Assembly (NCBI GenBank): GCA_963843515.1
Contig: CAWJKH010000004.1
Location: 35,867-99,866, forward strand
DNA from: an uncultured Actinomycetota bacterium
GTDB lineage: Bacteria > Actinomycetota > Thermoleophilia > RBG-16-64-13
Length of the DNA: 64,000 bases
Direction of reading: 5' to 3'
Shown: positions 8,291-53,058 of the stretch, piece by piece
Layout: every line of letters starts with the position of its first letter
How positions within the stretch are numbered: position 1 is the stretch's first letter
Program-made: the position numbers and the translations under genes
The notes under the pieces: model-generated
What the model saw: only the letters and a program-made list of their open reading frames with translations
The model's database searches: none
What the model was told of the DNA's origin: nothing

Positions 8291-8481
8291 GAACCTTCCC
8301 CGCGGATACAGGGTGAACTCAGCGAGTCACGCTCCAATCGCCCTCTTCCACCTTCGCCCGACCTTGATCCATTTGGCCCTCTAGACGGCGCAGATAGGTG
8401 GTGGTTACCGCCAGCGATCTGCGCGGACTTAATCCCCGGGCAAACCGGGCAGAAGCATCGGACCGTTAGGACACTGGCCGC

Positions 8482-10338
8482 TTACTCAGGGTTCGTGGGC
8501 GGAATGACCGGCAGAACAACGTGAGATGGGCGGTCTTTGTCATGGTAGATGGTGTCCCGGCCCACCTTTAGCCCGTAGTAGTGACCGCCGAAATCAAAGG
8601 CGTTTGAGTCATAGCACGCCAGATCCACTCTGATCCGATGGCCCTGCGGGAAACAACAGGACGTGGCCCATACCTCGATTGCGAACTCATAGGGCTTTCC
8701 AGGCTCCAGCGGCTGAGGTTTGTCATGGCGGTAGTAGGGGCGGTACGGAACGGACTTTCCCTCATCTTTGGTGGCGGCATGAGAGGCCTTCAGCCATCCG
8801 CGCGTGAGCATCAACGCGCGAGGAGGCATGCCTGGAACCTGCTCCTCATCGGGGAACTGGTCGACGAGCCGCACGAAGAAGTCAGTGTCCGTCTGGTCAG
8901 ACGAGGCCCACAGGTTGAGAACGATGTTCCCGATGACATCGACGTCGTGCTCAAGAGGATCGCTGGCAAATGTGAGGATCTTTTTCACTGGGTTCGGGAT
9001 ACCGTCCTCCATTACAGCCGTGCCCAGGCCCGAGAAGTGTGACCAATCCGGATCAGGATAGTCGTAGCTGGTCCACGCCCGCGTGACATCGGCCTTGGTC
9101 TCGGTTTCGGCGACCTTCTCCGGCGGCCACCCGGTCATTGGAGGTTCGCCGCTGACTTCGCCGGTGAACGTCGGCTTCTCTCGCGGGGCAGGCCCCGGGG
9201 CAGGCTCGGCCGTCGGCGCATCCCATGTAAGGAGGCCGTCGTTCAGGGAATCGACTGCCCCACTCGGCCCTGCGGCGAGATAGAGCCTGCGGTAGTCCGT
9301 ACGGCCAATCGGCCACTCCTTCTCGGTTTGGTAGACCTCCCGGTTGCGGACGAACACTGTCACCGGATCCTCCTGCATGAAGCCGGTGTCGTTGCCCTTC
9401 AGCCAGTGGTCGTACCAGCGTAGATGGAGCAGTTTCATTTCACGGCTGTTGAAGATCGCCATCTCGTCACCTTCGAAATCCCCGTGGCAGAGGAGCAGCT
9501 TCTTCGGCGCCTGGATCTCTTCATAGCCCCGGACGTTGCCGCGAAGGTGAATACCAACTTTGTGAAGGATGCCGATGCTGTAGACCGGGACCTTAATCCT
9601 GGAAAAATCTGGGATGCGGATCTGCCAGAACTCATCGCAGGTGGGATGGTGCATTACGTTCCAAGGCAGGTCCCAGGCCCCGATGCTGTCCGCCGGTCCG
9701 TGCTTGCCCAAGCGATAGTTGGCCCGAATCTCAGCCGTCCACCAGTTCGCCGGGAAGCCCAGAGCCATGTTCCCGCCATGGAACGCCACGTCCCTGTACA
9801 TGTCGGCGCCGCCGTCGAAGGGCGCGATGCACACGAGATGCGGCGGTTGCATGGCTGCAGTGAACCACTGCACCCAAGCGAGCAGCGACTCACCAAGCGA
9901 CCCCACCCTGCCGGTGCACCAAGGCTGGATAGCGATCCATTCAACCATATCGTAGAGGTCGTTCTGTTCCTCTTGGCTGAAGAGTTGGAACTCACCCTCT
10001 ACCGACTTCCCCGTGCCCCGGATGTCCTGATGAACGTACACGTAACCGCGAGATACGAACCACTCGATATCGTTGGTTTCGCGGAAGTGAAAGACGGGCC
10101 ATTGAGGCAGGTACTCGAGGTCCTTCTGATAACCGCTGACTGCGTAAAGGGCTGGGAACTGGCCGGGGGCGTCCGGCCGGAAGATGTCGCAAGCAACCCG
10201 CACCCCATCGCGCACGGTCACCATGACATCGCGCTCGACCACCACCTTGTACTGGGGCTTGCTCAGCTTGTCTTCCGGAAAGTCCTTCGGAAGCATGGTC
10301 GACATGATCTCGGGCTTCAGAATCTTGCTGTACATCAC
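8482..10338 (-). CDS. CocE/NonD family hydrolase (X-Pro dipeptidyl-peptidase-like, S15)
   Basis: RDGVRVACDIFRPDAPGQFPALYAVSGYQKD.. and a C-terminal beta-sandwich region typical of CocE/NonD. Confidence 0.75.
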   Translation of the reverse strand: MMYSKILKPEIMSTMLPKDFPEDKLSKPQYKVVVERDVMVTVRDGVRVACDIFRPDAPGQFPALYAVSGYQKDLEYLPQWPVFHFRETNDIEWFVSRGYVYVHQDIRGTGKSVEGEFQLFSQEEQNDLYDMVEWIAIQPWCTGRVGSLGESLLAWVQWFTAAMQPPHLVCIAPFDGGADMYRDVAFHGGNMALGFPANWWTAEIRANYRLGKHGPADSIGAWDLPWNVMHHPTCDEFWQIRIPDFSRIKVPVYSIGILHKVGIHLRGNVRGYEEIQAPKKLLLCHGDFEGDEMAIFNSREMKLLHLRWYDHWLKGNDTGFMQEDPVTVFVRNREVYQTEKEWPIGRTDYRRLYLAAGPSGAVDSLNDGLLTWDAPTAEPAPGPAPREKPTFTGEVSGEPPMTGWPPEKVAETETKADVTRAWTSYDYPDPDWSHFSGLGTAVMEDGIPNPVKKILTFASDPLEHDVDVIGNIVLNLWASSDQTDTDFFVRLVDQFPDEEQVPGMPPRALMLTRGWLKASHAATKDEGKSVPYRPYYRHDKPQPLEPGKPYEFAIEVWATSCCFPQGHRIRVDLACYDSNAFDFGGHYYGLKVGRDTIYHDKDRPSHVVLPVIPPTNPE

Positions 10339-10596
10339 AAATCTCCTGGTTGCTGGCAGGCAGACGGCGAGAAGATCATTGGTATTTCAGAGGCTCGTTC
10401 ACCGCTTGTGCAACTGCTCCCGGGGCCCCGGCGAAGCTGCAGACTGCAATCTGCGAGTCATACCGATGCGGTGTACGCCCAGCCCCAGATGCCCGTGAAT
10501 ACAGTGTACTGTGTTGTCACCAGCCATGAAGGCCGGAAGAGCGGGGCGGTGGCGCCACCGGTAACGTCTTGGAAGGTGGGCGTATCGCAGGCTGAG

Positions 10597-11263: not shown

Positions 11264-11351
11264 ACGTTCCTCCTGTGGGTCTTGACAACAATATGAAGCA
11301 TACCGCCGTCAGTCGCAGGGGGCTGACGGTTTGGTGCGATTACGCCCGTCT

Positions 11352-11515
11352 CAGTCCGTCTTGTGGTGACCCGCTTGCCACCGAATTGCCACCGAACTCG
11401 CCCTGAAGACGTCAAGACCCGGCTTCAGCGACGGGTCGCGACATACGATTCTTGGCTTTCCTAAGCGGAGAGGCGGGATTCGAACCTCCGGTACCGTTTG
11501 CACGGCGCAACTCAG
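11352..11515 (+). repeat. Interspersed tRNA-like repeat family copy
   Basis: TTGCCACCGAATTGCCACCGAACTCGCC ... GCGGAGAGGCGGGATTCGAACCTCCGGTACCGTTTGCACGG. Confidence 0.7.
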
Positions 11516-11578: not shown

Positions 11579-12016
11579 CTACACAGCTGGGGCTTTGACG
11601 CCCAACTGCTCCAGCGCTGCAGGAATGCCGCCATCGGCAGGCGACTCGACATGCATGTGGGAGACCTTGTCACCTCGGACGGTTACCACGAAGGCGTCCT
11701 TTACCGATACCTTCTTCCCGGTCGGCGGGAGGGTCGGCATTCCCGGCAGGGGCAGACTCAAGGGACCGGACTGGGTGCCGCTCCACCGCACCTTCACGGT
11801 TGCCTGATCCCCGTTCACTGTGGTCTGCTCTATGTCAAAGCTCAGATCGGGCATGGCAGTGACCAGCGCGTTCACCATTCCCATCGCTTGCATCACCGGG
11901 ATGGCCTGAGGCAGGACTCCACCACTCGCCATGGCGTCCGGGGTGACGAGTCCCTTTAGCCTCTCGGAATCATTCATGTTCTTCACGAAATCCCTGGCGA
12001 CTTGTTCAACGCTCAT
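11579..12016 (-). CDS. SnoaL-like / NTF2-fold protein
   Basis: 145 aa alpha+beta cone-like small protein. Family assignment is by overall resemblance only. Confidence 0.45.
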   Translation of the reverse strand: MSVEQVARDFVKNMNDSERLKGLVTPDAMASGGVLPQAIPVMQAMGMVNALVTAMPDLSFDIEQTTVNGDQATVKVRWSGTQSGPLSLPLPGMPTLPPTGKKVSVKDAFVVTVRGDKVSHMHVESPADGGIPAALEQLGVKAPAV

Positions 12017-14004: not shown

Positions 14005-14185
14005 CCGCCGTCTGGTCCCTCGCGTCCGTCTGGGTCCGCTTGCCGTTGGCGAGTTTGCCCCCGAAATGCCGCCGAACTCGCCCGACAGACGCGAAGACCC
14101 GGCCTCACCGACCGGGCCTCTACATGCGTTATTGGCTTTCCAGAGCGGAGAGAGGGGATTCGAAAACCCCCGGTACCGTCCTGAG
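14005..14185 (+). repeat. Interspersed tRNA-like repeat family copy
   Basis: GTCCGTCTGGGTCCGCTTGCC..GTTTGCCCCCGAAATGCCGCCGAACTCGCC...GCGGAGAGAGGGGATTCGAAAACCCCCGGTACCG. Confidence 0.7.
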
Positions 14186-20061: not shown

Positions 20062-20361
20062 CTCCGCCTTGACGAGCGCGATCTCTTGGTGGATCAGGTG
20101 GTGGACGTCGTGGAGCAGGTCCTTAAGGAGAGTAGCCAGCGACTTATCGAAGGATTCGGGATGCTCCTGCGGCGATTGGGGCGCGTCGGGCGATTCGGGC
20201 GACGTCGGGCGATGCAGGCTGCGCGACTTCTTCCGGCATGATTCCTCCTATCCCAGAACGCTTATCCCCCGGCCCTCGTTGCAGTTCCCCGTATGCCGTT
20301 TTCGAAACACCCGCGCTGGATCCGCTCTACCAGCCAAGGCGAGACCTCCTGGCGTTTGCCC

Positions 20362-20535
20362 GGTCTCCGTCCATCTGCCGGTGGCGCGTTTGCCCCCGAC
20401 CTGCCACCGAACTCGCCTCAGAGACGCGAAAACCCGGCGTCAACAGCCGGGTTCCGATGCGCCATTCTTGGCTTTCCAAAGCGGAGAGGGGGGATTCGGA
20501 CCCCCGGAACTTGGTTGCGGTGCAAACTGGTGGTT
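20362..20535 (+). repeat. Interspersed tRNA-like repeat family copy
   Basis: GCGTTTGCCCCCGACCTGCCACCGAACTCGCC...GCGGAGAGGGGGGATTCGGACCCCCGG. An extra 5' fragment of the family lies at 20590-20630. Confidence 0.7.
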
Positions 20536-22655: not shown

Positions 22656-22939
22656 ACCAGTCACCTCCAGCAGGGACGACGACGCCAATGGCCGCCGGTT
22701 GACTGCGCAAAGCGCGGAGCGCGGTATTAGGGCGCCGACCGCGCTCCGCAGGGCCGCCGATGATCGGAATCACGAAGATCTGGCGCTCACCTCAAGCAGT
22801 GTCATTGTCTAGTACCCCGGTCGCGGCGGTTCCAAGCGCAGTCACTTTTGTCGCTTGACAGCACGGCAGGCCCCCGGGTCGGTTGCCCATCCCCTGGTCT
22901 GTCCACGAGAGCACGGAGACTTGCTGTGGGGTGCCTTCG

Positions 22940-23115
<176 letters not shown>

Positions 23116-23195
23116 AGGTGTTCATCGTAGGCCCGGTTCCAGGCGTCCAGCGTATATGGCCGCGCTTAGAGCGCGCTTGGCGAGTGGGGGCAATC

Positions 23196-24680
23196 ATGAC
23201 GACTGATACTCACCGCACCGGGTATCCCTGCCGTATGCCTTCCGATGAACACAAACCGGAACAGGCGAGATTCGCGGCCGAAGAGCGGCGGCGGGTTGCC
23301 GAACAGGAGCAGGCGGTCGCTGAGCGGCCCCTCGCCGCCACGCCCCCACCACCGGGGGCGCCTCCGCCCCTCGAGCAAACGCAACCAACCGGCGCTTCGC
23401 GTTTCCTCTATATCCTGCGCAGTCGCAACTTTCGCCTCCTCTGGATCGGCGAGTTCGTGTCGCTCGTCGGGGGCCAGCTGTTTGTGGTCGCCCTCCCGTG
23501 GCTCGTCCTGGAGCTCACCGGCAACGGTCTGGCCATCGGGACGGTTCTGGCGGTGAGCACGGCTCCCCGCACTGTGTTCATCCTCGTCGGTGGGGGACTC
23601 ACCGACAGGTTCTCGCCCCGCGCGGTCATGTTGTACTCCAACATCGGCCGTATGGTGCTCGTCATTCTGCTAGCGGTGCTCACCGCGCTCGGTGTCATCC
23701 AACTGTGGATGCTCTACGCCATCGGTCTTCTCCTCGGATTCGGGTTCGCCCTCTACCTGCCCGCGCAATCGGCGATGATCCCCCGCCTGGTTTCCGGCGA
23801 CCGGCTCCAGACCGGCAACGCCATCATCCAGGGGACCGCGCAACTGGCGCTTTTCCTGGGACCGGTCCTGGCCGGCGTCCTGATTGCGTTCGTCGGGAGT
23901 GGGGGGAGTACCGTCCCCTCGGCGGCGGGCATCGCCATCGTGTTCGGGCTCAATGCGGTGAGCTTCGCTGTCTCGGCGGTCACGCTCATGATGATCCGGC
24001 TTCCTCAAGCGCGTCGCTTCAGAGGTGGGCGGGCCGCCAAAGGCGTGCTGCGGTCGGTGGGCGAGGGGTTGGCGAACGTCTGGCGGGACAAGACCCTGCG
24101 TCTCTATTTCTTGCTGATCGGCGTGGTGAATCTCGCGCTTCTCGGGCCGGTGTCCGTGGGCGTCCCCGTCCTGGCAGCCACTGAGCTCGCCGGCGGGGCG
24201 CTCGCGTACGGCGGGATCCTGTCGGGTCTCGGGGCCGGCGCTCTCACCGGAGCATTTGCGGGTGGCGCTCTCCGCCGTCCCCCAGGTCGCCTGTTCGCCG
24301 CGGCAATGCTCGGCTCGACCGCCTTGCTTGGGATCGGTCTCGCTCTTCTCGGCGCGGTTCCCTCGACGGCGGCCGCGATCGCGGCCGCGTTCCTGATCGG
24401 ACTCGCGGAGGGGTACCTGACGGTGGAGTTCATCACATGGCTGCAACTGCGCTCGTCCGAAGAAGAGCTCGGTCGTATGATGAGCATCCTCTTGTTCGTT
24501 TCGGTGGGGATGGCGCCGATATCGAACCTGATCGCCGGGGCTCTGATCGGGATGCAGGCGACCTGGTTGATGATCGGCGCGGGATGTCTGATCGTCCTTG
24601 TGGCGATCGTCGCCGCGTTCAGTCCGTCAGTGTGGCGGCTGAACGAGGTGAAGGAGGAGCTTCCTACCGCGGGCGACTAG
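23196..24680 (+). CDS. MFS transporter with N-terminal cytoplasmic Pro-rich extension
   Basis: 12-TM MFS pattern. The start is chosen after the repeat; the ORF track starts at 23118. Confidence 0.65.
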   Translation: MTTDTHRTGYPCRMPSDEHKPEQARFAAEERRRVAEQEQAVAERPLAATPPPPGAPPPLEQTQPTGASRFLYILRSRNFRLLWIGEFVSLVGGQLFVVALPWLVLELTGNGLAIGTVLAVSTAPRTVFILVGGGLTDRFSPRAVMLYSNIGRMVLVILLAVLTALGVIQLWMLYAIGLLLGFGFALYLPAQSAMIPRLVSGDRLQTGNAIIQGTAQLALFLGPVLAGVLIAFVGSGGSTVPSAAGIAIVFGLNAVSFAVSAVTLMMIRLPQARRFRGGRAAKGVLRSVGEGLANVWRDKTLRLYFLLIGVVNLALLGPVSVGVPVLAATELAGGALAYGGILSGLGAGALTGAFAGGALRRPPGRLFAAAMLGSTALLGIGLALLGAVPSTAAAIAAAFLIGLAEGYLTVEFITWLQLRSSEEELGRMMSILLFVSVGMAPISNLIAGALIGMQATWLMIGAGCLIVLVAIVAAFSPSVWRLNEVKEELPTAGD

Positions 24681-24860
24681 GCGCGCACCAGGTTAGAGCC
24701 GGGCGCGAGCCTCTGACCAGTGTGTTGCTTGTCAGCTAGTTCAAGCCATAGGCCCACACTTCTAGCGCAGCATGTAGCGTCGCTGATATTGTGAACGTGA
24801 GGGTGCTGATGGTGGATTCCGCCAGAGGTAGGATTCACCTGACCATGACGGAGGAAGAGC

Positions 24861-25922
24861 TTGGACGAGAAGCCCGCCATAGAAGACGCGGCTAAGGTGT
24901 CCGAGACGACGGAAGCGCCCACGAGCCCTTCCGCAGCAGGCGATACCGGATCTTCGGGTGGACAGAGGCCCCGGCGGAGGCACCGCCTAAGGACAGCTCT
25001 CATCATTATCGGCGTGGTTGTTGTGGTGCTGGCCGTCGCCTCATTCGCTGCGGCGGAGGCCTTCAGCTCGAACAACGCCTGCAACAGCTGCCACGAGATG
25101 CACCCCTACTACGACAGTTGGGGCGTTTCTACGCATAAGAGCGCCGACTGTGTCCAGTGCCACATCCCGCCGGGGCCCGGTAACTGGATAAAGACGAAGT
25201 TCTTGTCCTACAAAGAGTTATGGACGCATCTTGCCGGGATTGAGGAGCCGCCGGTTGCGGTCACCCGCAAAATCCCGCGCAGCAGCTGTCTGGGCTGCCA
25301 CCCGGACGGCGGCGGGCAGACCAAGGGTACTACCACCTTCCCCCACTCTGCTCATACATCGGTGCCTTGCGTCGACTGCCACGTGCGCTTGGTGCACCGC
25401 ACAGTCAACCCGCCCTATTACCACGACCCCATGCTTATGGCCAAATGTCTCGAGTGTCACAACGGTCAACCAGGGTCGCCGCCGAGCAACTGCAGCACGT
25501 GTCACACTCAGCCGCACGAGTTTCGAGGAGAGTGCGGCAACTGCCACGGGACCAACAGCTTCGCGCAACCCACGCCCCCAGATCATCCTCTCCCCTTGAC
25601 CGGGGGCCATGTAGGCGTGCCCTGTGCCGACTGCCATGTCGCCACGCCGGGCGGCGAGGTCATCCCGGGCACTTCCTTGCCGGTGCCCGCGGGAGATACC
25701 TGCGTTTCCTGCCACGCCGTGCAACACCAGGGATTGACCGACTGCGCTCAGTGCCACACTATAGAGACCTTCGCGGCGCCGACCTTCCAGCACCCACAGA
25801 TAGGACCACATGTCCCGACGGGAGATCGCGGCCTGCCTTGCCAGAGTTGCCACCCGTCGGCCGACTACACGCAATCGAGTTGCACGCCCTGTCACGAGAA
25901 TCCCCCCGAAGGGCAAGACTAG
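24861..25922 (+). CDS. Membrane-anchored multiheme cytochrome c (12 CxxCH), NapC/NirT-like N-terminal module
   Basis: One TM helix followed by CNSCHEM..W..S.H....CVQCH (NapC/NirT signature), and 12 CxxCH motifs in total. The start codon is uncertain (TTG in the ORF track). Confidence 0.8.
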   Translation: MDEKPAIEDAAKVSETTEAPTSPSAAGDTGSSGGQRPRRRHRLRTALIIIGVVVVVLAVASFAAAEAFSSNNACNSCHEMHPYYDSWGVSTHKSADCVQCHIPPGPGNWIKTKFLSYKELWTHLAGIEEPPVAVTRKIPRSSCLGCHPDGGGQTKGTTTFPHSAHTSVPCVDCHVRLVHRTVNPPYYHDPMLMAKCLECHNGQPGSPPSNCSTCHTQPHEFRGECGNCHGTNSFAQPTPPDHPLPLTGGHVGVPCADCHVATPGGEVIPGTSLPVPAGDTCVSCHAVQHQGLTDCAQCHTIETFAAPTFQHPQIGPHVPTGDRGLPCQSCHPSADYTQSSCTPCHENPPEGQD

Positions 25923-26325
25923 CCCCGAGGAAGACTGGCGGCTATCTGAGAGGTGGCTGGGACCCGGACACGACTGGATAGGGGACAGGATTCGCGGCCG
26001 ACGTGCCTGAACGCCGCAGCCAGAGCATCTACGCAGACATCGTCGCTGACTTCATCGCGCAGGGCACCGAGTCAATGCAGGTGACCATCGAGAGGATGAA
26101 GCCGGCGACGCTGGGGGCCGGACTGCGAAGGGCGATTAACAACCGGGAAGAGCAGGACGTGAGACTGGTACGAAGGCGAGAAAAGACATACCTAGTAAGG
26201 CAGGACGCGGGATAGCGTTCATCGCCCGCACTCGAAGGGGGTTCGCCCCGGCTGGCAAGGCTTGGTGGCAGCCAATCCGGGGCGGCTTGCGCCGGCTGCA
26301 GGCCCGGCCAAGGTCAGGGCCCGAG

Positions 26326-26757
26326 CTACATTCCCGGCACGAGACCCAGTTGCGCCAACAGTGACATCGTGTCGAAGTACACGGCGGTGTAAACGATCTT
26401 ACCGTCCTTGAACTGTACGACGTCGGCGCCCGGAGTGGTCGCCCTGCGTCCAGTCGGGGGTATGCTGGCGCCCGCGGGAGTCATCATCGGGCCGGTATGC
26501 GTGCCTGTCCCAATCCAGGTGTCCACAACCCAGTCACCACTGGCGATCCGCTGGGTGACCTGGAAAGACAAGTCGGGGAACGCCGTCCAATTTCCCTCGA
26601 GAAAGGCCCGGTGCCCCGCCTCGCCGACTGGGCCGGGCTGGCCAGGCAGCAGCGATTGGAAGGAATCGGCGTGATAGGCCCGCAAGCGCTCATAGTCGTG
26701 GGCGTTCAATGCCGCCAAGTACTCATCGGTGATACGGACGTTGTCCTGCTCTGACAT
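26326..26757 (-). CDS. SnoaL-like polyketide cyclase / ester cyclase family protein
   Basis: 143 aa; the ...YHADSF..G..GHRAFLEG pattern is typical of ester cyclases. Confidence 0.55.
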   Translation of the reverse strand: MSEQDNVRITDEYLAALNAHDYERLRAYHADSFQSLLPGQPGPVGEAGHRAFLEGNWTAFPDLSFQVTQRIASGDWVVDTWIGTGTHTGPMMTPAGASIPPTGRRATTPGADVVQFKDGKIVYTAVYFDTMSLLAQLGLVPGM

Positions 26758-26869: not shown

Positions 26870-27130
26870 GGCAAGGGGCTTGGCAAGTGCCGGACGGGGC
26901 GCCTCTGGAATGATCCTGGCGTCACCGGCCCCAGGTTCTCGCTGTCTGGTGGCCTTGGGTCTGTCCTCGTCCGTCGGCTGCTATCGAGTTTGCCCCCGAA
27001 TTCCCCCCGAACTCGCCCCAAATGCGCGAAAACCCGACCATGTCCGTCGGGTCTCGACAAGCCGTTTTTGGCTTTGCTAAGCGGAGAGGCGGGATTCGAA
27101 CCCCCGGTACCGTTTGCACGGCAAATGTCT
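26870..27130 (+). repeat. Full composite copy of repeat family (5' CCCCGGCTGGCAAGG..CTTGGCAAGTGCCGGACGGGG module + core + tRNA-like 3' module)
   Basis: The longest architecture. The internal hairpin here reads ACCCGAC/GTCGGGT, compensatory relative to the ACCCGGC/GCCGGGT copies. A second 5'-module fragment lies at 27158-27205. Confidence 0.7.
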
Positions 27131-27627: not shown

Positions 27628-27815
27628 GTCGGCTGGCCCGGCTTGGTGGAGCCAAACTCCACGTTTTGGAGGACGGGGCCGTCCTGTACGGCCACTCACA
27701 GAGGCCCGAAGACTCCGCAGCCCAGGGCCTCGTTCTCGCGGGCTACCAGTATCAGACATGTCAAAAGGAGCAAAAGCGGAGAGAGGGGTTCGAACCCCCG
27801 GTACCTATCTCGTGA
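27628..27815 (+). repeat. Degenerate repeat copy (5' hairpin module fragment + isolated tRNA-like 3' module)
   Basis: CGGCTGGCCCGGCTTGGTGGAGCC ... GCGGAGAGAGGGGTTCGAACCCCCGGTACC with an unrelated middle. Confidence 0.45.
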
Positions 27816-28704
27816 GCGGCTTGTGCGTCGGGTATTCGTGAGCAATCACGTCCTCCAGCGAGAGCGGAGCGAACGTCGGGAAGCGGCGCATCGTCTCTGA
27901 CGGCTCGAAGGTCATATCGGCAGTGTCCATGATGTAGGCCGCCCTGCTCTGCCACGCGCGCATGGGCTTGATCGGTCGGACGACTCGCGACATCAACCGC
28001 AGGGCCGTTCGCGGCACGTGCCGTACGCTTCCTGAGGCGCCTGTCCAGGACTGAAATGCCGCGATGAGCTGGTTGAACGTGAGGTTCTGAGGGCCGCCAA
28101 CCTCGATCACGTGGCCCCGGAGTGCGGGGTCGCTGACCGCGAGTTCCAGGAGGTAGGCGACGTCGCGGACCGAGACGAAGTTGATGGGATTATCGCCGCG
28201 ACCAAAGATCATGGTCTTGCCCGTCCTGAGCAGCGGCTCGCAGACAAGCATGAGCCAAGTCTCGAAGTACGCGTTGGGACGCATGATCGTCCACGAAAGC
28301 CGGCTGGCGAGCAGTTCCTGCTCGGCCCGGTACTTCATGCGAAACAGCTCCATCGGATGATCGGGGGCGGCCCCATGGATGGACACCAGGATGAAGTGCT
28401 CGACGCCGGCAGCTTCTGCCGCATGGATGAGGTTGGCGTTTCCCTTCCAGTCGACCGTCTCCGCGTTCCCCGCGCCTCTGCCGAAAGCAGTCATAGCCGC
28501 TATGACCGTGCTCATGCCAGTTGTGGCCCGCTGGGTCACAGCCGGGTCGCGGACATCTCCTGCAACCGTCTCGATCAGTTCCCCCTCAAGCTTGGCAGCC
28601 TTCGTCGGGTCACGCACCAGGAGGCGCAACCGATGGCCGTGTCCGGCAAGAAGGGGGACCAGCTTGGTGCCGAGGCCGCCGGTGGCGCCGGCGATCAGGA
28701 TCAT
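27805..28704 (-). CDS. NAD(P)H-binding NmrA-like / SDR-a family protein
   Basis: MILIAGATGGLGTKLVPLL Rossmann N-terminus. The start was chosen at this Met; the ORF track extends to 28785. Confidence 0.7.
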   Translation of the reverse strand: MILIAGATGGLGTKLVPLLAGHGHRLRLLVRDPTKAAKLEGELIETVAGDVRDPAVTQRATTGMSTVIAAMTAFGRGAGNAETVDWKGNANLIHAAEAAGVEHFILVSIHGAAPDHPMELFRMKYRAEQELLASRLSWTIMRPNAYFETWLMLVCEPLLRTGKTMIFGRGDNPINFVSVRDVAYLLELAVSDPALRGHVIEVGGPQNLTFNQLIAAFQSWTGASGSVRHVPRTALRLMSRVVRPIKPMRAWQSRAAYIMDTADMTFEPSETMRRFPTFAPLSLEDVIAHEYPTHKPLTR

Positions 28705-29074
28705 TGTCCGCCGGCCTGGCGCCGGACAGGGGCATCGATGTCGGCGCCTTGCCGGTCGACCGGCTCCATGTAGAAGTGCGTCCACGCGATTTGGCCGCCG
28801 CTTACGCCACTGATGGTCACCCCGGCCATGTCAGCGGAAGAACCGTCCGGCCGAGTGCCCTGCCAAGACTCGGCGTCCTCTTGCTGGCACCCACCGCAGG
28901 CTCCCTTCTTGTGCACGACTAGGAGTGGCGCACCCATATATCGTCGCCATGCCCAATCATTCCTGTTCAAACGGCGCCTCAAACAACGGACGTCTGCGTG
29001 GCGAGGAAGCTACTGAAACAGCGTCCGTATTCGGCAACGGGGCCGGGGTGAACCGCGGGTCACCACGCCTGCGT

Positions 29075-29208
29075 TAAGTCCGTCTCGTTCCGTTGCTTGC
29101 CAGCGAGTTTGCCACCGAATTGCCACCGAACTCGCCCGAAAGACGCGAAAACCCGGCCTCAGCGACTAGGTTCCGACCCGCCGTCTTTGCGAAGCGGAGA
29201 GGGGGGTA
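29075..29208 (+). repeat. Repeat family copy, 3' module truncated
   Basis: GAGTTTGCCACCGAATTGCCACCGAACTCGCCCGAAAGACGCGAAAACCCGGCCTCAGCGACTAGG...GCGGAGAGGGGGGTACGAG. Confidence 0.6.
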
Positions 29209-29218
29209 CGAGCAGGCA

Positions 29219-29656
29219 TCAACCTCGTGCATGCCTCCGAGGAGTAATCGCCGTAATGATCAAGGAGCAGGCCACGAGCGCAAGCATCATGAGCACATAG
29301 CCTAGGGCAACATCAGCCCACCCGTGGAACCCCGAGATCACCGCGCACACCAGTGAAGAGAGTGCGGCGGGAAGACAGAAGCCCAGTCCAAGACCTGGGA
29401 AGAATGGAGAAACCTCGGCGGCCAACGCAAGAACGACAGCGATCACGAGACAGAGCGCTGCGAGCCCGCCCAGCAGACGAAGGTCTGTCGCCCCGACGCC
29501 CTCGGCGGTTGCAGTGGTCCAGACGAACCAGGCGCCGACGAGCAACGCGATGATGGCACCGAGAACGAATCCTAGTCTAAAGGCCACTGTCCCTCCGGTC
29601 GGCAAAGCCGCGCTGCGCAGTCGACACACTATTCCCGAGACAGCTGACGAGAACAC
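29219..29656 (-). CDS. Hypothetical 4-TM membrane protein
   Basis: Hydrophobic ORF with no recognisable motifs. Confidence 0.3.
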   Translation of the reverse strand: MFSSAVSGIVCRLRSAALPTGGTVAFRLGFVLGAIIALLVGAWFVWTTATAEGVGATDLRLLGGLAALCLVIAVVLALAAEVSPFFPGLGLGFCLPAALSSLVCAVISGFHGWADVALGYVLMMLALVACSLIITAITPRRHARG

Positions 29657-29774
29657 CGCCCAGTCGGCTGAGCTTGCAGGGTGTTGACGAAGTGGGGCTT
29701 CGCGATCTTAACCTGGGACCCCACTTTGATGCAAAGACGGGCGGTCAGTTGTTAGGCCTCTTCTTGTGCGTTTC

Positions 29775-29835
29775 GGTCCGTTACGTGTTGCCGAGTTTGC
29801 CACCGACCTGCCCCCGCACCCGAGGGCGGACCCTC
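29775..29835 (+). repeat. Repeat family 5' fragment
   Basis: GGTCCGTTACGTGTTGCCGAGTTTGCCACCGACCTGCCCCCG. Confidence 0.4.
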
Positions 29836-29924
29836 CTTTACTTTGACTGACGGGCTCCTAGAATGAGGTGTAGTTGGAACCCCAGCCTCTACGACTCGCA
29901 CCAAGCCCACAAGGAGGATCGGCC

Positions 29925-30377
29925 ATGGTTGCCGACGTCACTCCGCAGGACATCGATTGGGAAGCCGTGATCCATCGGCACCGGGAGTTCTGGGAGACAT
30001 TCGAGGAGGCGAAGATAGAGAGTGTCAAGGAATTGGCCGCGCCCACCATCCGCTATCGGGACCCGATGAGGGAACTTGCAGGGATCGACGCGTACATCGC
30101 CATGTTGCGTCAGCTATGCAAGGCTGCGGATCAGATCCGGACCCAAACCCTGGGCGAGGCCCGAGATGGCAACAGGGCTTACGTTCAGTGGATCATGACC
30201 TTCCGGCCACGGAAGGCCCCCAAGAAGCTGGTCAAGCTCCCGGGAATGTCGGCGTTCAAGTTCGACAAGCAGGGGAGACTACTTGAGCATTTCGACTACT
30301 GGGATTCGGCTGTGGAGCTTGCCATGTTCCCGGTCCTGGGTCGAGTCGTGGGGCTCACGAAGAGGCTCATGACCTAG
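29925..30377 (+). CDS. NTF2-like / SnoaL-like protein
   Basis: AGGAGG precedes the ATG (MVADVTP). About 150 aa. Confidence 0.5.
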   Translation: MVADVTPQDIDWEAVIHRHREFWETFEEAKIESVKELAAPTIRYRDPMRELAGIDAYIAMLRQLCKAADQIRTQTLGEARDGNRAYVQWIMTFRPRKAPKKLVKLPGMSAFKFDKQGRLLEHFDYWDSAVELAMFPVLGRVVGLTKRLMT

Positions 30378-30689
30378 AAGCGTAGGAGGTACGAGATGAC
30401 CTCCTTTGCTTTAGAGCCCGTTGCGACCAGAGTCCCCGACGGCACTCCGTGGAGGCTGGCCCTCTCATCCCATCTTCGAACAAAGCGTGCTGTTCTCGTG
30501 CGAGACGATGGTCACGCTCGCTGCGAACGCTGCCGATAACGCTTCAAGTGAACTTGTTCTCATCGACAGAGAGGGCTTGCCTCGCCGAGCCCAATGAGCA
30601 CTCGGCGTGCTGGAAGGAGCGTGACCGTCTCCGAGTCCACAAAGCCTGCTCGCCGATCCTGTTCCTCGGGGCGACCCCCAGGTGCGGTG

Positions 30690-32005
30690 TGAAACGCGCT
30701 CTCCGGTCTTTGGCTGCGCTCGCAGTGATCTCGATTCTCGCCGTCGCGGGCTGTAGCAACCCCGGAGGGAGTCCGTCAGCATCTAGCACTAAAGTTGTGT
30801 CGCCGCCCAGCCAACCTGGTGGCGCCGGAACCGGCACGGAGGGAACGGTCGCTCCGGCGGTGACTGTCGACACCCGCGCGGGCACGACCACGACGACCCT
30901 GGAGGCGCCGGCGGAGGAAGTCTTACTCTTTCCGGCTGTGCAGGGCGGCGCGGTGGGTTATATCGACAGCGAAGGTCGATGGATCATTCCGCCGCAGTTT
31001 AGCTCCGCTAGCAGATTCTCCGGGGGGCTGGCGATCGCAACGGTAGATGAAGGCCATGGAAGCCTGACCATCCAGAAGTACGGGGTCATCGACTCCACCG
31101 GCACATGGGTCATACAGCCGCGCTTCACGTGGTGCGGTGAGTTTTCCGAGGGCCTGGCCCCGGTGCAGCTGGAATCGCGCGGACGCTACGGTTACATCGA
31201 CCGGACCGGGAAGCTCGTCATCCCGCCCAAGTTCGAGAAACCAGGCCCACTGGATCAGGCCTCCGACGGGCAACTCGTGTTCTCCGATGGTCTAGCCCTG
31301 TTCGCGGCCGAAGGCGGTAGCCCGTGGGGATACATGGATGCCGCGGGCGCGGTCGTGGTGGAACCGCGATTCGACTCCGCCTCGGCCTTTGCCGGCGGCT
31401 ATGCCGCCGTGCGGGGTGGTCAGGAGAGCTACTTCATCGACAAGACGGGCCGTAGAGCGTTCCCGTCTCAAGACTATGCCGCGGCCGGGCCTTTCTCGGA
31501 GGGATTGGCCCCGGTCTCGGTCACGGACACCGATGGCACCCGGTATGGTTTCATCGACACCGCAGGCAGGATGGTGATCGAACCCCAGTTCGGCTTGGTC
31601 GGACAGTTCTCTGAAGGTCTAGCCATGTTCGGGCTCGGCGGCAGGTCTGCCGAAGACGCACTTTACGGCTTCATCAACACGAGCGGCGAGCCGGTCATCC
31701 CGCCGAAGTTTGACTACCTCTACTACTTTGGAAGCAGCGGGATGTCGGATGAGGCTCGGGCGTTCTCTGAGGGGCTGGCGCTCGTTACGTTCGACCACGG
31801 CGAGAGCTGGGCTTACATCGACAAGAATGGAGAGATCACCATCAAGCCCCGGGACAGCGTGTTGCCGGCACCGTTCCGTAACGGACTGGCCCTCCTAGAG
31901 AACGGCGATCTATACCGCACCGCAGGGGAGTGGCGCTGGGAATACATCGACAAGAGCGGCAAGACGGTCTGGGAAGAGGGCAGGCAGGACACTCCTCCAT
32001 CATGA
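30690..32005 (+). CDS. WG-repeat (KWG) lipoprotein
   Basis: GTG start with lipobox ILAVAGCS. Multiple YG[YF]ID..G..VI.P.F WG repeats. Confidence 0.65.
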
Positions 32006-33530
32006 CGCACGTACACCAGAGTCACTGGGGGCATCCCTATGTTTTTGTCAAGCCAGAGTGACCTCGCGAATGGCGGCGCCCTGATCGAATAGGGTGTCAT
32101 CCCGAAGCATGGCGAAGATCACATTGACCCGACGTCTCGCGAGAGCAAGCACCGCTTGATGATGCTTCTTGCCCTCACTTCGTTTCCGGTCATAGAAGGC
32201 CCGGGAGGCGGGGCTCTTAAGACTGGCAAAGGCCGACTGGTAGAGCACCTGCTTGAGCGATCGGTTGCCTCCGTGCGGTCGTCTCAGGCGCCCCTGCACT
32301 TTCCCGGAGTCTAAGGAGACCGGCGCAAGACCGGCATAAGCGGCGAGCTTGTCGGCGCTCCCAAAGGCAGAAAGACTGCCGACCGCCACCAAGAACTCAG
32401 CTCCCAGGCGAGGTCCCATGCCCGGCAGGCTCACGAGGATCTTCGCCTGGGCATGGGAGAAAAAACAGGCTTCGAGCTCCTCGTCTAGCTGGTGTAAGCG
32501 CTCGTTCAGGCGAACCAGTTCCCCGGCGAGCTCGCCCGCCAGGCGGGCACTAAGCTCTTCGGCGGGCAGACGCACCGTCTGTGCTTCGGCGGCCCTAAGG
32601 GCCCGCTCCGCGAGTTCCGCGGCCTTCCACACTCCCTGGCTCTTAAGATAGTCCGTGAGGCGCCGCAGGCCGGCCCGCCGAATCTTAAGCGGGGTCTGAT
32701 AGCGCAGAAGCAGCTTGGGCGCTCCTTGGGTCGTAAGATCAAGCGCACGCTCGAGACCGGGAAAGACCCCGACCAGCACCTCGCGCAGCCGATTGATGAG
32801 CCGGGTGCGGTCAGCCACCAGATCGTGGCGGTGGCCGACCAAGAGCCGAAGAGAGGCGACGGTCTCCTCGGAGGGCGCGTAGCGGGCGAGATTGCGCCTG
32901 AGACGGGCGTTCTCGGCGATGACGAGCGCATCCCGGCGATCGGTCTTGGCCTCGCCGGCCAGAGCGGTGCGGCTACGATTGACGACCAGACCGGGAACGT
33001 AGAAGACCTCTTGGCCCTTGGCGACGAGCAAGGCGAGAGCCAGAGCCGCGGGACCGAAGGTCATGTCAAGGGCCCAGCGGACGTGTTCGGCCAGGGCGGC
33101 CACTTCCGCCATCACGTGAAGGAGGTCCTCTTCAGTGTTCTCGACGCGGCGGGAGAGAAGTTCTTCCCCTTGCTCTCCGACCGTCACCACCCAGTGGAAC
33201 TCCTTGCCCACATCGATCCCGGCGAATGCTCGTTCCACCGTCACCTCCTTTACTTGTGTCAGGAGCATGTCCCAGAAAGACCCTTCGCCGGCATCACCTT
33301 ACGGAGCGAGCGATTCGCCGATCCCTATCAGCGGTCAAAGAGTCCTGGAAGGATCGAGCGGCAATACCCCCATGGCCATGGTGGCAGCTACTGAAAAGCC
33401 ATACTCGATCCACCTGGGAGCCTTGAGAATACGACTCATGGGCTCCCGAAAGAAAGGTAAGGCTACTGGATTTGATCAAAGGGATCTGATGCTGACGGGG
33501 AGTCATGCGCCTCTGCCATCCGGTGCCATT
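32006..33530 (-). mobile_element. IS110-family insertion sequence (approximate ends)
   Basis: Contains the IS110-type transposase gene and about 300 bp of non-coding leader. No terminal inverted repeats, as expected for IS110. It abuts a repeat-family copy at 33533. Confidence 0.55.
32048..33229 (-). CDS. IS110 family transposase (DEDD)
   Basis: AGIDVGK N-terminus and a C-terminal GMGP..AEFLV..G....F......AYAGLAPV..DSGK motif. GTG start with AAGGAGG upstream. Confidence 0.8.
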   Translation of the reverse strand, partial: AFAGIDVGKEFHWVVTVGEQGEELLSRRVENTEEDLLHVMAEVAALAEHVRWALDMTFGPAALALALLVAKGQEVFYVPGLVVNRSRTALAGEAKTDRRDALVIAENARLRRNLARYAPSEETVASLRLLVGHRHDLVADRTRLINRLREVLVGVFPGLERALDLTTQGAPKLLLRYQTPLKIRRAGLRRLTDYLKSQGVWKAAELAERALRAAEAQTVRLPAEELSARLAGELAGELVRLNERLHQLDEELEACFFSHAQAKILVSLPGMGPRLGAEFLVAVGSLSAFGSADKLAAYAGLAPVSLDSGKVQGRLRRPHGGNRSLKQVLYQSAFASLKSPASRAFYDRKRSEGKKHHQAVLALARRRVNVIFAMLRDDTLFDQGAAIREVTLA

Positions 33531-33532
33531 GC

Positions 33533-33695
<163 letters not shown>

Positions 33696-39132: not shown

Positions 39133-39170
<38 letters not shown>

Positions 39171-39689
39171 CGCACTCGGGCAAGACCGTTGCCGATATAC
39201 TGAAGGCAGGGAGGTATCCCCAAGTGCGCGCATTCGCCTCTTGGCCTCGTCGTTCGCGGTGGCCACGGCTTCTTGGTCTGGCCTCGCTCCTTGCGGCTGT
39301 GGGCTGCGCCGCATACCTGCTCTTCGGCGGCATCTATTCCAGCACAACTGAAGACGCCTCCGATACCGAAGGCGGAGTGGTTGACGTTACCACCACCCAG
39401 GGCTGGCAGGACTACGCCATCGTCGGCTGGGCTTTGTTCATAGTCTTGCTCGGGGTGGTAACCGTTTTCGCCGCCTGGCGGGGCCGCTCTGGGCCTGTTT
39501 GGGTGTCGGCTTTCCTGCTGCTCATATTGACGGTCCTTGGAGTTGTGAGCATCGGTCTGTTCGTGGCGCCAGTGGCGCTCCTGTTCGCCCTCACCGCTTA
39601 CACGCTTAGTGTTTCTCGGCGTCGAGGCCGGGCTGCTGCGTAACCGCGATCGGAAAGACGGAGACATGCCTTCAAGTACGCGTGCGTCC

Positions 39690-39785
39690 GTTCGGGCCCG
39701 TCCGCTGGTGACGAGTTCGTCACCAGGATGTCACCACGAGAGCCCCGAAGACGCGAGAACCCGGCCGCCTGAGCCGGGTCTGACT
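39690..39785 (+). repeat. Repeat family variant fragment
   Basis: CGCTGGTGACGAGTTCGTCACC...AGAACCCGGCCGCCTGAGCCGGGTCT. The hairpin ACCCGGC/GCCGGGT is retained and there is no 3' module. Confidence 0.4.
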
Positions 39786-40420: not shown

Positions 40421-40897
40421 TTCATTTACCCCTTTTTTAGCCGTGATATCGCGTGCCGGATGCCGAAGAGATCAGAGAGCCTTGTTCTAAGCATCAACGT
40501 CCTCCGCGACCGACCGATTCCAGAGGTATCTTCCCAGGCCGGCGCCCATGACAAACGGACGTCGCTTGTGATTACAGCAAAGGGCGGGCGCACGGGCCCG
40601 CAGGCCGCGAACACGGCCGGCTTACTGCCCGCTCTTGTGGCCTCGCCCTGGAAGAGCGACGAGCAGAACGAGGCACCTCTGCGGTACCTGGTCGAGTCAC
40701 GCGACGGTAGGCCCGCCGTCGCCGCCCTCCTCTACACCGGCTACTCGTTCGAACCGGAGTTGCTTGGGCTAGGTATGCCATCCACGCCTACAGTTCAGCG
40801 GGTGCCCGGCGATCTCTCGTACGGATCTGGCCGGCCTTCTCGGTAGGCACTCCTCCGCACTTCAAGCAGGCTTCGAGCGTGCTGTCGGGTGCTCTCC

Positions 40898-41072
40898 CGT
40901 CCGTACCGGCCCGTCCGCTGGTGACGAGTTTGCCACCGACTTGCCACCGAACTCGCTCGAAAGGCACGAGAAGCTCGACCTCAGTGGTCGAGCTTCGCCT
41001 CACGAAACCCCTGGAAATGAGCGGAGAGGGGGGATTCGAACCCCCGGTACCGCTTGCGCGGCACAACGGTCA
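40898..41072 (+). repeat. Interspersed tRNA-like repeat family copy
   Basis: GACGAGTTTGCCACCGACTTGCCACCGAACTCGC...GAGCGGAGAGGGGGGATTCGAACCCCCGGTACCGCTTGCGCGGCACAACGG. The internal hairpin is replaced by GAAGCTCGACC/GGTCGAGCTTC, a different sequence with the same fold. Confidence 0.7.
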
Positions 41073-43627: not shown

Positions 43628-43912
43628 TCAGGCGTCCATCGTAACGAACTCGTCTATGACCTCCGGCTTCACATCGCCACGGTCGCCGGCCCAGCCGATG
43701 AGCTCTCGCAGCTCGGTGGAATCTGCGAATTTTCGCGCTTTGGCGAGATCGTCGAATTCCAGCAGAGCAACATAAAGAGTCGAATCCGCGGGATCGCGGA
43801 ACAGCCGAGCGCTCTTGCATCCGTTCACCCGACGCCGCGAGGAGTCTGCCTCGAATATCTCCCTCAGCTGCTCGATGCTCTTCACCTTGTGATGAATCAG
43901 AACGTATGGCAT
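43628..43912 (-). CDS. Small ABM/Dabb-like alpha+beta barrel protein
   Basis: 94 aa; MPYVLIHHKV...YVALLEFDD pattern. Confidence 0.4.
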   Translation of the reverse strand: MPYVLIHHKVKSIEQLREIFEADSSRRRVNGCKSARLFRDPADSTLYVALLEFDDLAKARKFADSTELRELIGWAGDRGDVKPEVIDEFVTMDA

Positions 43913-44187: not shown

Positions 44188-44511
44188 TCAGTGCTTCGCC
44201 ATGCCGCTGATCATGGCTTCGAGGGCCTTCGAAGCGGTGTCAAGCGCCTTATTCAAGTCCACCAAACCGTAGATCTGTATGTCCGCAAAAGCTCCGAAGG
44301 GGAACTCCGCCATGATCTCATCAAGTTCCTCCAGAGAGCCGACGTTAAGGATGGCGCCGCCCGCGCTCAGGCCTGCGAAGCCCCACGACTGTTCTACCTT
44401 GCCCGCTGCGGTGTAACGGGCGTTAAACGCCTTCATCGCTGCGAGCAGGCCCAGCGTCATCTCCGGTGGCGCAGGGGTCTTTTGATTCGTGACAACCAGA
44501 TACTTCATGGG
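44188..44511 (-). CDS. DUF3303-like small protein
   Basis: MKYLVVTNQK..., about 107 aa. Confidence 0.35.
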   Translation of the reverse strand, partial: PMKYLVVTNQKTPAPPEMTLGLLAAMKAFNARYTAAGKVEQSWGFAGLSAGGAILNVGSLEELDEIMAEFPFGAFADIQIYGLVDLNKALDTASKALEAMISGMAKH

Positions 44512-44747
44512 GCACCTCCCCGATGCGCGCGTTGCTGACGGCCGGGGAGTACCCGTGCTAGGCAGATAGGAAACGACCACGGCAGCAGTTTTACCTCTTT
44601 CTTCCCGAGTCTTTCTCCTTTCTGCACCCCCGCCTTGCGCTCGCTCCCTAGACTGAAGAACTCGACGGACCGCAATCTTGAACTCGTCCAGGCGGCGAGG
44701 TCAAAGGCGACGAGGTTGATGCAGCCGCGTGATTACCCGAGACAAGT

Positions 44748-45675: not shown

Positions 45676-45945
<270 letters not shown>

Positions 45946-50084: not shown

Positions 50085-50245
<161 letters not shown>

Positions 50246-50439
50246 TCGAGACCGCCGCATTAAGCCAGCTCTGCCACCTCTCCAAAGCGCAACCGGGATT
50301 GTAGCGGATAGACCGCGCTGGCGCGCCTCGGATGGGGCCGAGCCCCTGTGTGGGACTCGCCCCTCTCGTCTGGGCCCATGCGCGGAAGAGTGGCCCAGCT
50401 CATAGGGCAGCTCGGCCACGTTCCGCCTGCCGCGGCGTC

Positions 50440-52111: not shown

Positions 52112-52149
52112 CGTCGTTCCTCCGGCGTCCATTCTACACCATTGTCAAT

Positions 52150-52235: not shown

Positions 52236-52270
52236 GAGTCGGGGGAGGGCTGAACAAAAGGGGGTTCGAG

Positions 52271-53056: not shown

Positions 53057-53058
53057 GC

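Follow-up and report, generated by a model that had tools for sequence, protein, structure and literature searches.

Among the closest described systems to the gene reported here are membrane-anchored multiheme cytochromes that oxidize quinols or have been proposed to do so. The high-spin heme 1 of NrfH has Met49 as its only axial ligand and Asp89 of NrfH binds quinol, and CymA has neither residue (PMC3279761). Lys82 of NrfH makes contact with a quinol analogue; its equivalent in CymA, Lys91, is essential there (PMC2762525). ImdcA of Thermincola ferriacetica is a membrane-bound, redox-active decaheme protein with a probable high-spin heme, and it has been proposed to oxidize menaquinol and to feed an electron path that crosses the cell wall (PMC7911101). 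Here we describe a gene for a twelve-heme, membrane-anchored c-type cytochrome that lies at 24861..25922 on the plus strand of a 64-kb stretch of DNA from an uncultured Actinomycetota bacterium (assembly GCA_963843515.1, contig CAWJKH010000004.1); this whole stretch, at its full length, is what we call the window. The gene is real and intact. Judging from its homologies, its product most likely carries electrons from membrane quinols outward in an uncultured soil actinobacterium.

The coding sequence, with its stop codon counted in, is the maximal open reading frame (ORF) in its frame and specifies 353 amino acids. Twelve CxxCH motifs begin at residues 74, 97, 143, 170, 196, 211, 225, 255, 281, 295, 327 and 341. 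All 24 cysteines of the protein sit in these motifs, which gives one heme per 29.4 residues. This agrees with the original prediction, made from the letters of the window, of a single transmembrane helix followed by twelve motifs in 353 residues, or roughly one heme per 29. The arrangement is far from what chance produces: among 200,000 shuffles of the protein the maximum was four CxxCH motifs and 89% had none, and the other reading frames of the window hold at most four scattered motifs each. The GC content at third codon positions is 0.75, similar to that of the adjoining genes. Compared with an 81%-identical relative (L001), dN/dS is 0.205 over the gene and 0.17 in the heme domain, and dN of residues 1-43 exceeds that of the heme domain. 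The gene is under purifying selection. A protein identical to it is present in public data (P0001), and an identical protein was recovered in an independent sequencing run.

The start codon is TTG, and a Shine-Dalgarno sequence (GGAGGA, 24850-24855) lies five bases 5' of it. This sequence falls within a probable promoter and 5' untranslated region (24742..24860, plus strand) that is similar to the corresponding region of L001. The similarity to L001 spans the gene and about 110-120 nt upstream, and it ends at the stop codon. Thus, what has moved between contexts is this one gene together with the DNA just upstream of it. An out-of-frame ATG is found at 24845-24847. When window positions 24845-24861 were compared with L001 (9985-10003), a 1-nt insertion was seen to shift the ancestral ATG out of frame; because of this indel, the cytochrome starts at the TTG at 24861, 16 nt downstream.

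The protein has a short tail, one anchor and a long heme domain. The N-terminal tail (24861..24989, plus strand; residues 1-43) is of low complexity, ends in the arginine-rich stretch RPRRRHRLR, varies in length and sequence across the family and has a predicted local distance difference test score (pLDDT) below 50 in an AlphaFold2 model. It is followed by the transmembrane anchor helix (24990..25058, plus strand; residues 44-66), the sole hydrophobic helix of the protein and one that has the arginine-rich stretch directly ahead of it. The Kyte-Doolittle maximum over 19 residues is 2.99, in the stretch starting at residue 46, and the model places a helix at residues 38-70 with pLDDT above 90. 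A hydrophobic segment precedes heme 1 in 114 of 115 homologues. By the positive-inside rule the tail would be cytoplasmic and the heme domain would lie outside the membrane.

Two parts can be told apart in the heme domain. The first is a tetraheme module of the NrfH/NapC type (25062..25415, plus strand; residues 68-185), whose hemes 1-4 start at nt 25080, 25149, 25287 and 25368. The second is an eight-heme, c7-like wire (25416..25919, plus strand; residues 186-353), whose hemes 5-12 start at nt 25446, 25491, 25533, 25623, 25701, 25743, 25839 and 25881. The layout appears to read 4 + 3 + 3 + 2, so that the wire would consist of a triheme, a second triheme and a diheme unit.

The Pfam NapC/NirT model PF03264 matches residues 44-182 with 48.4 bits against a cut-off of 24.1 and covers profile positions 8-172 of 174. 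PF14522 (Cytochrome_C7) scores 51.5 bits against a cut-off of 24.8, over five stretches, and PF14537 and PF02085 match too. The top NCBIfam match is the NrfH model TIGR03153, which at 56.1 bits does not reach its equivalog cut-off of 134.2. The NapC, TorC and DmsE models score below the NrfH model, those for NapC and TorC lying far under their cut-offs, and the nanowire_3heme model TIGR04257 gives 24.9 bits against a cut-off of 40. When a family profile was compared with the PDB, the best match was NrfH of Desulfovibrio vulgaris (2j7a_C, E=1.5e-15), with the anchor helix and all four heme motifs aligned, and c7 proteins came next. The motifs at residues 74, 97, 143 and 170 pair one-to-one with the four motifs of NrfH, which upholds the earlier proposal that the first four are arranged as in the NapC/NirT/NrfH family. 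By its equivalog score, the N-terminal module is NrfH-like, not NrfH.

Structure prediction had also been proposed, to compare the heme packing with NrfH-extended and OmcA/MtrA-like arrangements. The AlphaFold2 model, built from 84 family sequences and free of heme, averages a pLDDT of 76.6. Foldseek ranks NrfH first among its matches (2vr0_F, probability 0.99) and places PpcA after it, with a probability of 0.2-0.3. The E-values of these matches are weak, as would be expected of a model that lacks heme and has little secondary structure, and we used Foldseek as support only.

The residues that form the quinol site of NrfH have counterparts in the cytochrome. The first heme motif is C74NSCH78-E-M80, a CxxCHxM motif. 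In the alignment with NrfH, Met80 pairs with Met49, Lys113 with Lys82, and Glu119 with Asp89, the last being a conservative replacement of aspartate by glutamate. Met80, Lys113 and Glu119 are invariant in family alignments of 18 and of 84 sequences, and CxxCHxM is kept in 87 of 120 homologues. Outside the motifs, the family has 11 invariant or near-invariant histidines, as against 12 hemes. This count and Met80 would fit 11 bis-histidine hemes and one methionine-ligated heme of the NrfH type.

We also compared the cytochrome with ImdcA, using a sequence that was machine-read from the supplement of PMC7911101. BLASTP aligned residues 38-331 of the cytochrome, from the transmembrane helix towards the C-terminus, with ImdcA at E=7e-15 and 24% identity. 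PdcA aligned more weakly (E=2e-10).

The cytochrome belongs to a large family that has already been annotated but is uncharacterized, and it is no one-off. A word-indexed search returned 648 protein clusters at E<=1e-3, and where a name is given it is 'NapC/NirT family cytochrome c' or 'nitrate/TMAO reductase-like tetraheme cytochrome c subunit'. An exhaustive search of 50%-identity representatives returned 2251 matches at E<=1e-3, of which 716 reach E<=1e-10 and 35 reach E<=1e-30. Among the weaker ones are many multiheme proteins of very large size, in which the C-terminal unit recurs up to 23 times. Relatives are encoded in 241 stretches of GTDB species genomes; at least 241 species carry one, most of them uncultured Actinomycetota and Thermoleophilia. 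The best of these matches come from metagenome-assembled genomes (MAGs) of uncultured Actinomycetes, Actinomycetota and Thermoleophilia, in keeping with the actinobacterial-like host that had been suggested. The MFD series supplied many of these MAGs, and close relatives are present in Danish soil samples. Our literature searches found no paper on the actinobacterial cytochrome family.

Family members differ in their number of hemes. Among 120 homologues, 36 have 12 hemes, 18 have 14, 10 have 17 and 10 have nine; others have 15 or 21-23, and the whole range is 9-23. The longer homologues add blocks of about 70 amino acids, each a triheme unit.

The genomic contexts of family members were examined in 82 fetched loci, in which ORFs were called with a picker based on third-position GC content and clustered by BLASTP, together with precomputed Pfam contexts. 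The neighbour names purF, purL, leuA, Usp, HAD and deaminase are our reading of the sequences. No nitrite, nitrate, dimethyl sulfoxide (DMSO) or other reductase lies beside the cytochrome gene in about 45 actinobacterial loci. No conserved partner gene emerged from the clustering of the 82 loci either; four unrelated synteny groups were found instead. The original prediction had treated the cytochrome as an orphan. Since reductases almost never adjoin members of the family, standing alone is the family rule, and the gene is not a special orphan.

The closest relatives (group A, 66-74% identity; L002, L006, L035, L082 and L083) lie in a core housekeeping locus of the order dnaJ-prmA-RNase R-cytochrome-smpB-tmRNA. 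An ORF of the window at 60167-60643 was considered as the smpB of an ancestral locus of this kind (rnr-cyt-smpB) and was rejected, as its translation appears, from its HAE and PCAMC motifs, to be that of a CMP/dCMP-type deaminase and not SmpB. In group B (14 loci), an ATP-binding cassette (ABC) importer of the BtuF/FecCD type lies upstream and purF downstream, and in five of the loci a divergent ccmC-B-A-F-E operon stands directly beside the cytochrome gene. The ccmC, ccmB, ccmA and ccmF genes of group B were named by their motifs, and ccmE alone was tested with a profile. Group C (about 15 loci) comprises nine-heme forms from Thermoleophilia, with the gene order Nramp-Usp-cytochrome-HAD. In group D (four loci), the cytochrome gene lies beside a leuA-like gene. 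In L001 its neighbours are a LysR regulator on one side and a MacB-type ABC system on the other, and no major facilitator superfamily (MFS) transporter adjoins it. Tandem paralogues of the cytochrome occur in L008, L017 and L032.

The maturation genes of these relatives are of System I. Genes for ccmC, B, A, F and E were seen in Actinomycetota MAGs at L004 (5278-9820, minus strand), likewise in L003, L005, L016 and L025, and in L192 (1312-5937), where the operon is labelled by precomputed Pfam matches. The CcmE of L004 ends in TKCPSKYE, a CxxxY variant with a cysteine; the heme-binding residue of canonical CcmE is histidine.

One relative's genome shows what may lie further out. L192 is on the same MAG contig as L031, and at 8001-10418, about 150 kb from the family member of L031, it encodes two adjacent multiheme cytochromes with cell-wall-binding SLH domains. 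The first (P0052) has 510 amino acids, 18 hemes, a signal peptide and three copies of the five-heme unit that corresponds to hemes 8-12 (residues 242-345) of the cytochrome described here; the second has 215 amino acids. This pair is situated between the ccm operon and a heme-biosynthesis operon (hemA/C/D/B/E/Y-like) and forms a 'cytochrome island' in this uncultured Actinomycetes MAG. This layout, found in a relative and not in the organism of the window, is the one expected of an electron conduit between membrane and wall.

The ORFs scanned across the 64-kb window contain no other multiheme cytochrome, no Ccm or Res maturation gene and no respiratory reductase, which bears out the earlier statement that no partner reductase, further cytochrome or maturation gene is nearby. 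As candidates for maturation genes, only a generic ABC ATPase was matched by tBLASTn with the Ccm proteins of L004, and it was rejected.

Based on these results, we propose a model in which the cytochrome joins an NrfH-type menaquinol dehydrogenase to a c7-like wire and makes up the stretch nearest the membrane in an extracytoplasmic electron path. We consider this model probable, with room for others. The cytochrome would be a type-II membrane protein, with its N-terminus inside, a single anchor helix and every heme outside the cytoplasmic membrane. Menaquinol would bind at the membrane surface beside heme 1 of the first module (hemes 1-4). Heme 1 is predicted to be methionine-ligated and high-spin, and Lys113 and Glu119 would hold the quinol, from which electrons would enter the heme chain through this module.

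The second part of our model concerns the way outward. The c7-like, bis-histidine hemes 5-12 would conduct electrons from the membrane into the zone of the cell wall, the host probably being a monoderm actinobacterium. Heme number varies across the family, as would be expected for a wire of adjustable length. At the far end, electrons may be handed over to soluble or solid acceptors, such as Fe(III), Mn(IV) or humic substances, or to wall-anchored cytochromes encoded elsewhere. We propose that the cytochrome is a counterpart of Thermincola ImdcA in role and in distant ancestry. The original prediction had likewise spoken of a quinol-oxidizing wire that serves extracellular or periplasmic electron transfer with partners encoded elsewhere; the invariant quinol-site residues, the homology to ImdcA, the range of 9-23 hemes and the SLH cytochrome in one relative's MAG fit this idea, while quinol oxidation itself, the metal or electrode respiration suggested at that time, the direction of flow, the acceptor and any partner stay at the level of our model.

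Several points weigh against this model. The cytochrome family is known from sequence alone, and its direction of electron flow is not readable from that sequence. The score against the NrfH equivalog model is far under the cut-off (56 versus 134 bits). The AlphaFold2 model is heme-free and its mean pLDDT of 76.6 is middling, and the Foldseek E-values are weak. The identity to ImdcA is just 24%, and the ImdcA sequence was read by machine from a supplement. Our view of the genome is one 64-kb window. Last, the eight-heme extension would measure about 8 nm, as estimated from the dimensions of c7 polymers, and may not span a thick wall alone.

Of the other explanations, the one that survives best, which we regard as unlikely, makes the cytochrome a dedicated source of electrons for a conventional extracytoplasmic reductase whose gene lies elsewhere (for nitrite, nitrate, trimethylamine N-oxide (TMAO) or DMSO, tetrathionate or similar), in the manner of NrfH, NapC or TorC and with the extension as an adaptor domain. 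The N-terminal module is homologous to all three of these proteins, the genome is seen only within the 64-kb window, and CymA provides a precedent for one NapC-type protein that serves unlinked reductases (PMC6295460). However, no reductase adjoins the gene in any of about 45 actinobacterial loci, which span four unrelated synteny groups. The number of heme modules differs widely among close relatives, which is unusual for a protein with a fixed docking partner, and the same module recurs in SLH-anchored and very large multiheme proteins.

Electrons might also flow in reverse, from external donors (Fe(II), reduced humic substances, a cathode or a partner cell) to the quinone pool, as has been proposed for ImoA/CymA-type proteins of iron oxidizers. 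NapC/NirT proteins have been proposed as quinone reductases in Fe(II) oxidizers (bioRxiv 10.1101/2022.01.10.475773), multiheme chains are intrinsically bidirectional, and a cupredoxin is encoded a few kb from the cytochrome gene in L082. Nothing specific favours this direction, however. The NrfH-type site of methionine, lysine and acidic residue has been characterized for quinol oxidation (PMC3279761, PMC2762525), and the loci examined showed neither Cyc2-like genes nor other known genes for iron oxidation. We hold reverse flow to be quite unlikely.

An assimilatory role is improbable. Here the cytochrome would be a surface metal reductase acting on external Fe(III) or Mn(IV), and the reduced ion would be imported by adjoining transporters. 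A transporter does lie directly upstream on the same strand in three independent contexts: Nramp/MntH in 15 Thermoleophilia loci, the BtuF/FecCD-type ABC importer in group B, and an EntS-like MFS protein in the window. L001, moreover, has an FtrD-like gene and heme-biosynthesis genes near the cytochrome. But the MFS protein of the window reaches none of the NCBIfam cut-offs and has its highest scores with drug exporters, and the ABC system, which would fit B12, heme or a siderophore alike, is not assignable. Gene order shared within a clade may simply have been inherited, the closest relatives lie between RNase R and smpB without a transporter, and twelve hemes would be a costly outlay for iron scavenging. 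A link to iron uptake is, in our view, a weak rival only.

That the gene is a decaying or unexpressed passenger of a variable island, with no present function, is highly improbable: it does sit among the cassettes of an array, close to IS110 and IS481-like elements, and its ancestral ATG was displaced by a 1-nt indel, but the 12 motifs, the distal histidines and the quinol-site residues are all intact, dN/dS is 0.205, a good Shine-Dalgarno sequence stands ahead of the TTG, the upstream region is conserved and the identical protein was obtained in an independent sequencing run.

We return to our proposal of an outward path from menaquinol. Soils are rich in uncultured Actinomycetota and Thermoleophilia, about whose anaerobic energy metabolism little is known. 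The family is a plausible route by which respiratory electrons could reach iron minerals or humic substances in cells of the Gram-positive type. At 353 amino acids and encoded by a single gene, the protein would be a convenient target for expression studies and for structure work that takes the hemes into account; if active alone, it could be a compact part for bioelectrochemical engineering. The cytochrome is unsurprising in kind. What it offers is a well-defined representative of an uncharacterized family and a pointer to the array of cassettes in which it lies, which we consider the more unusual feature of the window.

The array is anchored on an intact tRNA-Ser(CGA) gene (50193..50283, minus strand; ARAGORN, Rfam RF00005), the only tRNA gene in the window. 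A repeat of about 190 nt occurs between about 700 and 50234 in at least 12 near-full copies and about six fragments, all on one strand. The copies are at 4154-4321, 11324-11505, 14017-14185, 20332-20527, 22914-23111, 26933-27128, 29054-29234, 33515-33695, 40878-41062, 44824-44945, 45765-45938 and 50085-50234, and fragments are at 718-807, 27773-27817, 29756-29821, 39134-39173 and 39685-39783. The final copy (50085-50234) overlaps the 3' end of the tRNA-Ser gene, and there is no copy beyond it. Each repeat opens with the 3' half of the anticodon stem, takes in the variable arm, the T-arm and the acceptor end, continues for about 130 nt with a terminator-like hairpin and ends in the near-invariant box GCGAGTTCGGnGGCAAnTCGGnGGCAAACTCG. 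Two TTCGGnGGCAA half-sites are candidates for binding by a recombinase. The possibility that the repeat is a structured RNA was rejected: Rfam recognized the tRNA only, and RNAalifold found a terminator-like hairpin with 2 of 17 pairs covarying. Because there is little covariation, the repeats look like DNA sites rather than structured RNA.

The same box is found in 108 metagenome contigs. In all 55 of the contigs with several copies, the copies are co-oriented, usually 0.6-3 kb apart, and in about 20 contigs an intact tRNA-Ser(CGA) heads the array. The 5' flank of the tRNA in the window (a deaminase-like protein, a CDF transporter, an MFS protein and a CoA-transferase) is syntenic with those contigs, the proteins being 64-81% identical. 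The cargo varies from one genome to another, and single cargo genes recur. The loci of the cytochrome's relatives (L001-L081) lack the repeat, bar one weak match in L078. No tyrosine or serine recombinase domain was found in the scanned ORFs of the window or in 10 metagenome cargo ORFs; only IS110 and IS481-like DDE transposases were seen.

The cytochrome is accessory cargo in one cassette of this variable island, which is about 50 kb long. The cassette lies between att-like repeats at 22914..23111 (minus strand, nhmmer E=5e-57; the tRNA-distal bound, with the 3' half of tRNA-Ser(CGA) and the conserved tail of about 130 nt) and at 26933..27128 (minus strand, E=1.6e-57; the tRNA-proximal bound). 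Because the cytochrome is cargo in a cassette bounded by repeats, its neighbours are unrelated to it. Upstream and co-oriented is an MFS_3/DHA3-type transporter (23118..24680, plus strand; PF07690, PF05977), with no functional link shown; its NCBIfam matches, to Tet(V), EntS and an H+ antiporter, are all under cut-off, and the same MFS-cytochrome pair is found on an independent contig of 2967 nt. Downstream, an ORF of 70 amino acids (26003..26215, plus strand) has no Pfam or NCBIfam match and has 62-67% identical copies in the metagenome array contigs L138, L182, L159 and L150. The last gene of the cassette encodes a SnoaL-like protein (26326..26757, minus strand; PF07366, 97.5 bits), of which an 89%-identical copy is present on array contig L173. 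The MFS and SnoaL neighbours had been named before, and both are there; the small ORF between the cytochrome and SnoaL genes had gone unnoticed.

Other cargo of the array is varied. Between the copies at 4154-4321 and 11324-11505 lies a gene (5333-8290, plus strand) for a UPF0182 protein of 985 amino acids (933 bits). UPF0182 is normally a conserved actinobacterial membrane protein, and its place among accessory cassettes is thus unexpected. An IS110-family transposase (32048-33268, minus strand) and an IS481/Mu-like DDE transposase (rve and Mu-transpos_C_2; 48435-49976, minus strand), which adjoins the tRNA-Ser gene, are also inside the array. Three SnoaL-family genes occur in different cassettes, at 11579-12016 (minus strand), at 29874-30377 (plus strand) and in the cytochrome cassette. 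Small alpha+beta-barrel proteins of the ABM and muconolactone-isomerase-like types are encoded at 43628-43912 and 44188-44580 (both minus strand), and the cargo is enriched in such small enzymes. Proteins with WG repeats (PF14903) are another recurring kind of cargo in arrays of different genomes, present in the window at 30449-32005 (plus strand) and in L106 (5488-6384) and L107 (4027-5169). On the core side of the tRNA, 51362-54063 encodes an XRE-type HTH protein of 256 amino acids, a weak VWA/CoxE-like match and an ARPP-1 domain protein (290 bits), in synteny with L123; this cluster may be a conflict or regulatory system.

The pattern of the array matches what serial site-specific insertion at a tRNA gene would leave. 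Its closest described analogue is the tycheposon-type island of Prochlorococcus (bioRxiv 10.1101/2020.12.28.424599); accretion of cis-mobilizable elements is another case of serial integration at tRNA genes. The array resembles such islands in having an intact tRNA at the head, segments of cargo bounded by co-oriented partial copies of the tRNA, one core-genome flank and cargo that differs between genomes. The array described here differs in its Actinomycetota host, in its at least 12 full copies and further fragments over 50 kb, in the additional near-invariant box that ends a stretch of about 130 nt in each copy, and in that no integrase was found in the cassettes examined. As a speculation, and a doubtful one, we suggest that the cytochrome is a self-contained, horizontally mobile 'plug-in' respiratory module, which would unite a quinol oxidase and an extracellular wire in one gene with its own promoter, carried in an integrase-less, integron-like gene-capture array at tRNA-Ser(CGA) of uncultured soil and sediment Actinomycetota whose tRNA-derived sites of about 190 nt bear GCGAGTTCGGnGGCAAnTCGGnGGCAAACTCG and whose recombinase would be encoded elsewhere.

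Among known cytochromes, NrfH of D. vulgaris (PDB 2J7A, 2VR0) is the best match of the protein in both sequence and fold. The two share one N-terminal anchor helix, four hemes in the same order and spacing, CxxCHxM at heme 1, the quinol-binding lysine and an acidic residue at the matching position, which is Asp89 in NrfH and glutamate in the cytochrome. NrfH has about 160 amino acids and four hemes, whereas the cytochrome has 353 amino acids and eight more hemes. NrfH is also encoded with NrfA and forms a tight complex with it, in which NrfA gives a ligand to heme 4; the cytochrome has no nrfA beside it.

The wire has a likely counterpart in PpcA and GSU1996 of Geobacter, as it appears to be a tandem run of small triheme units with c7-like motif spacing. 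The GSU1996 poly-c7 protein also has 12 hemes. These c7 proteins are soluble and periplasmic, in contrast to the cytochrome, and are without a quinol module.

CymA, NapC and TorC belong to the same Pfam family and share the membrane-anchored tetraheme core of a quinol dehydrogenase, and the lysine that is essential in CymA (Lys91) is conserved in the cytochrome. Like the proposed path, CymA serves partners that are not encoded beside it. CymA differs in having no equivalents of Met49 and Asp89 (PMC3279761), and all three proteins differ in having four or five hemes and in working in the periplasm of diderm bacteria.

ImdcA (Tfer_0070/TherJR_1117) has in common with the cytochrome a Gram-positive host, an anchor helix at the N-terminus with a multiheme domain after it, and significant similarity over the full length. 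It has 10 hemes rather than 12, and its first motif is CHDAM rather than CHEM, which places the methionine three instead of two residues past the histidine. Its C-terminal part is not made of the c7-like repeat units found in the cytochrome. The proposed partners of ImdcA in Thermincola (PdcA, CwcA and OcwA) are known, whereas the 64-kb window encodes no other cytochrome. Taken together, these comparisons suggest that ImdcA is a distant homologue of the cytochrome and its closest functional analogue.

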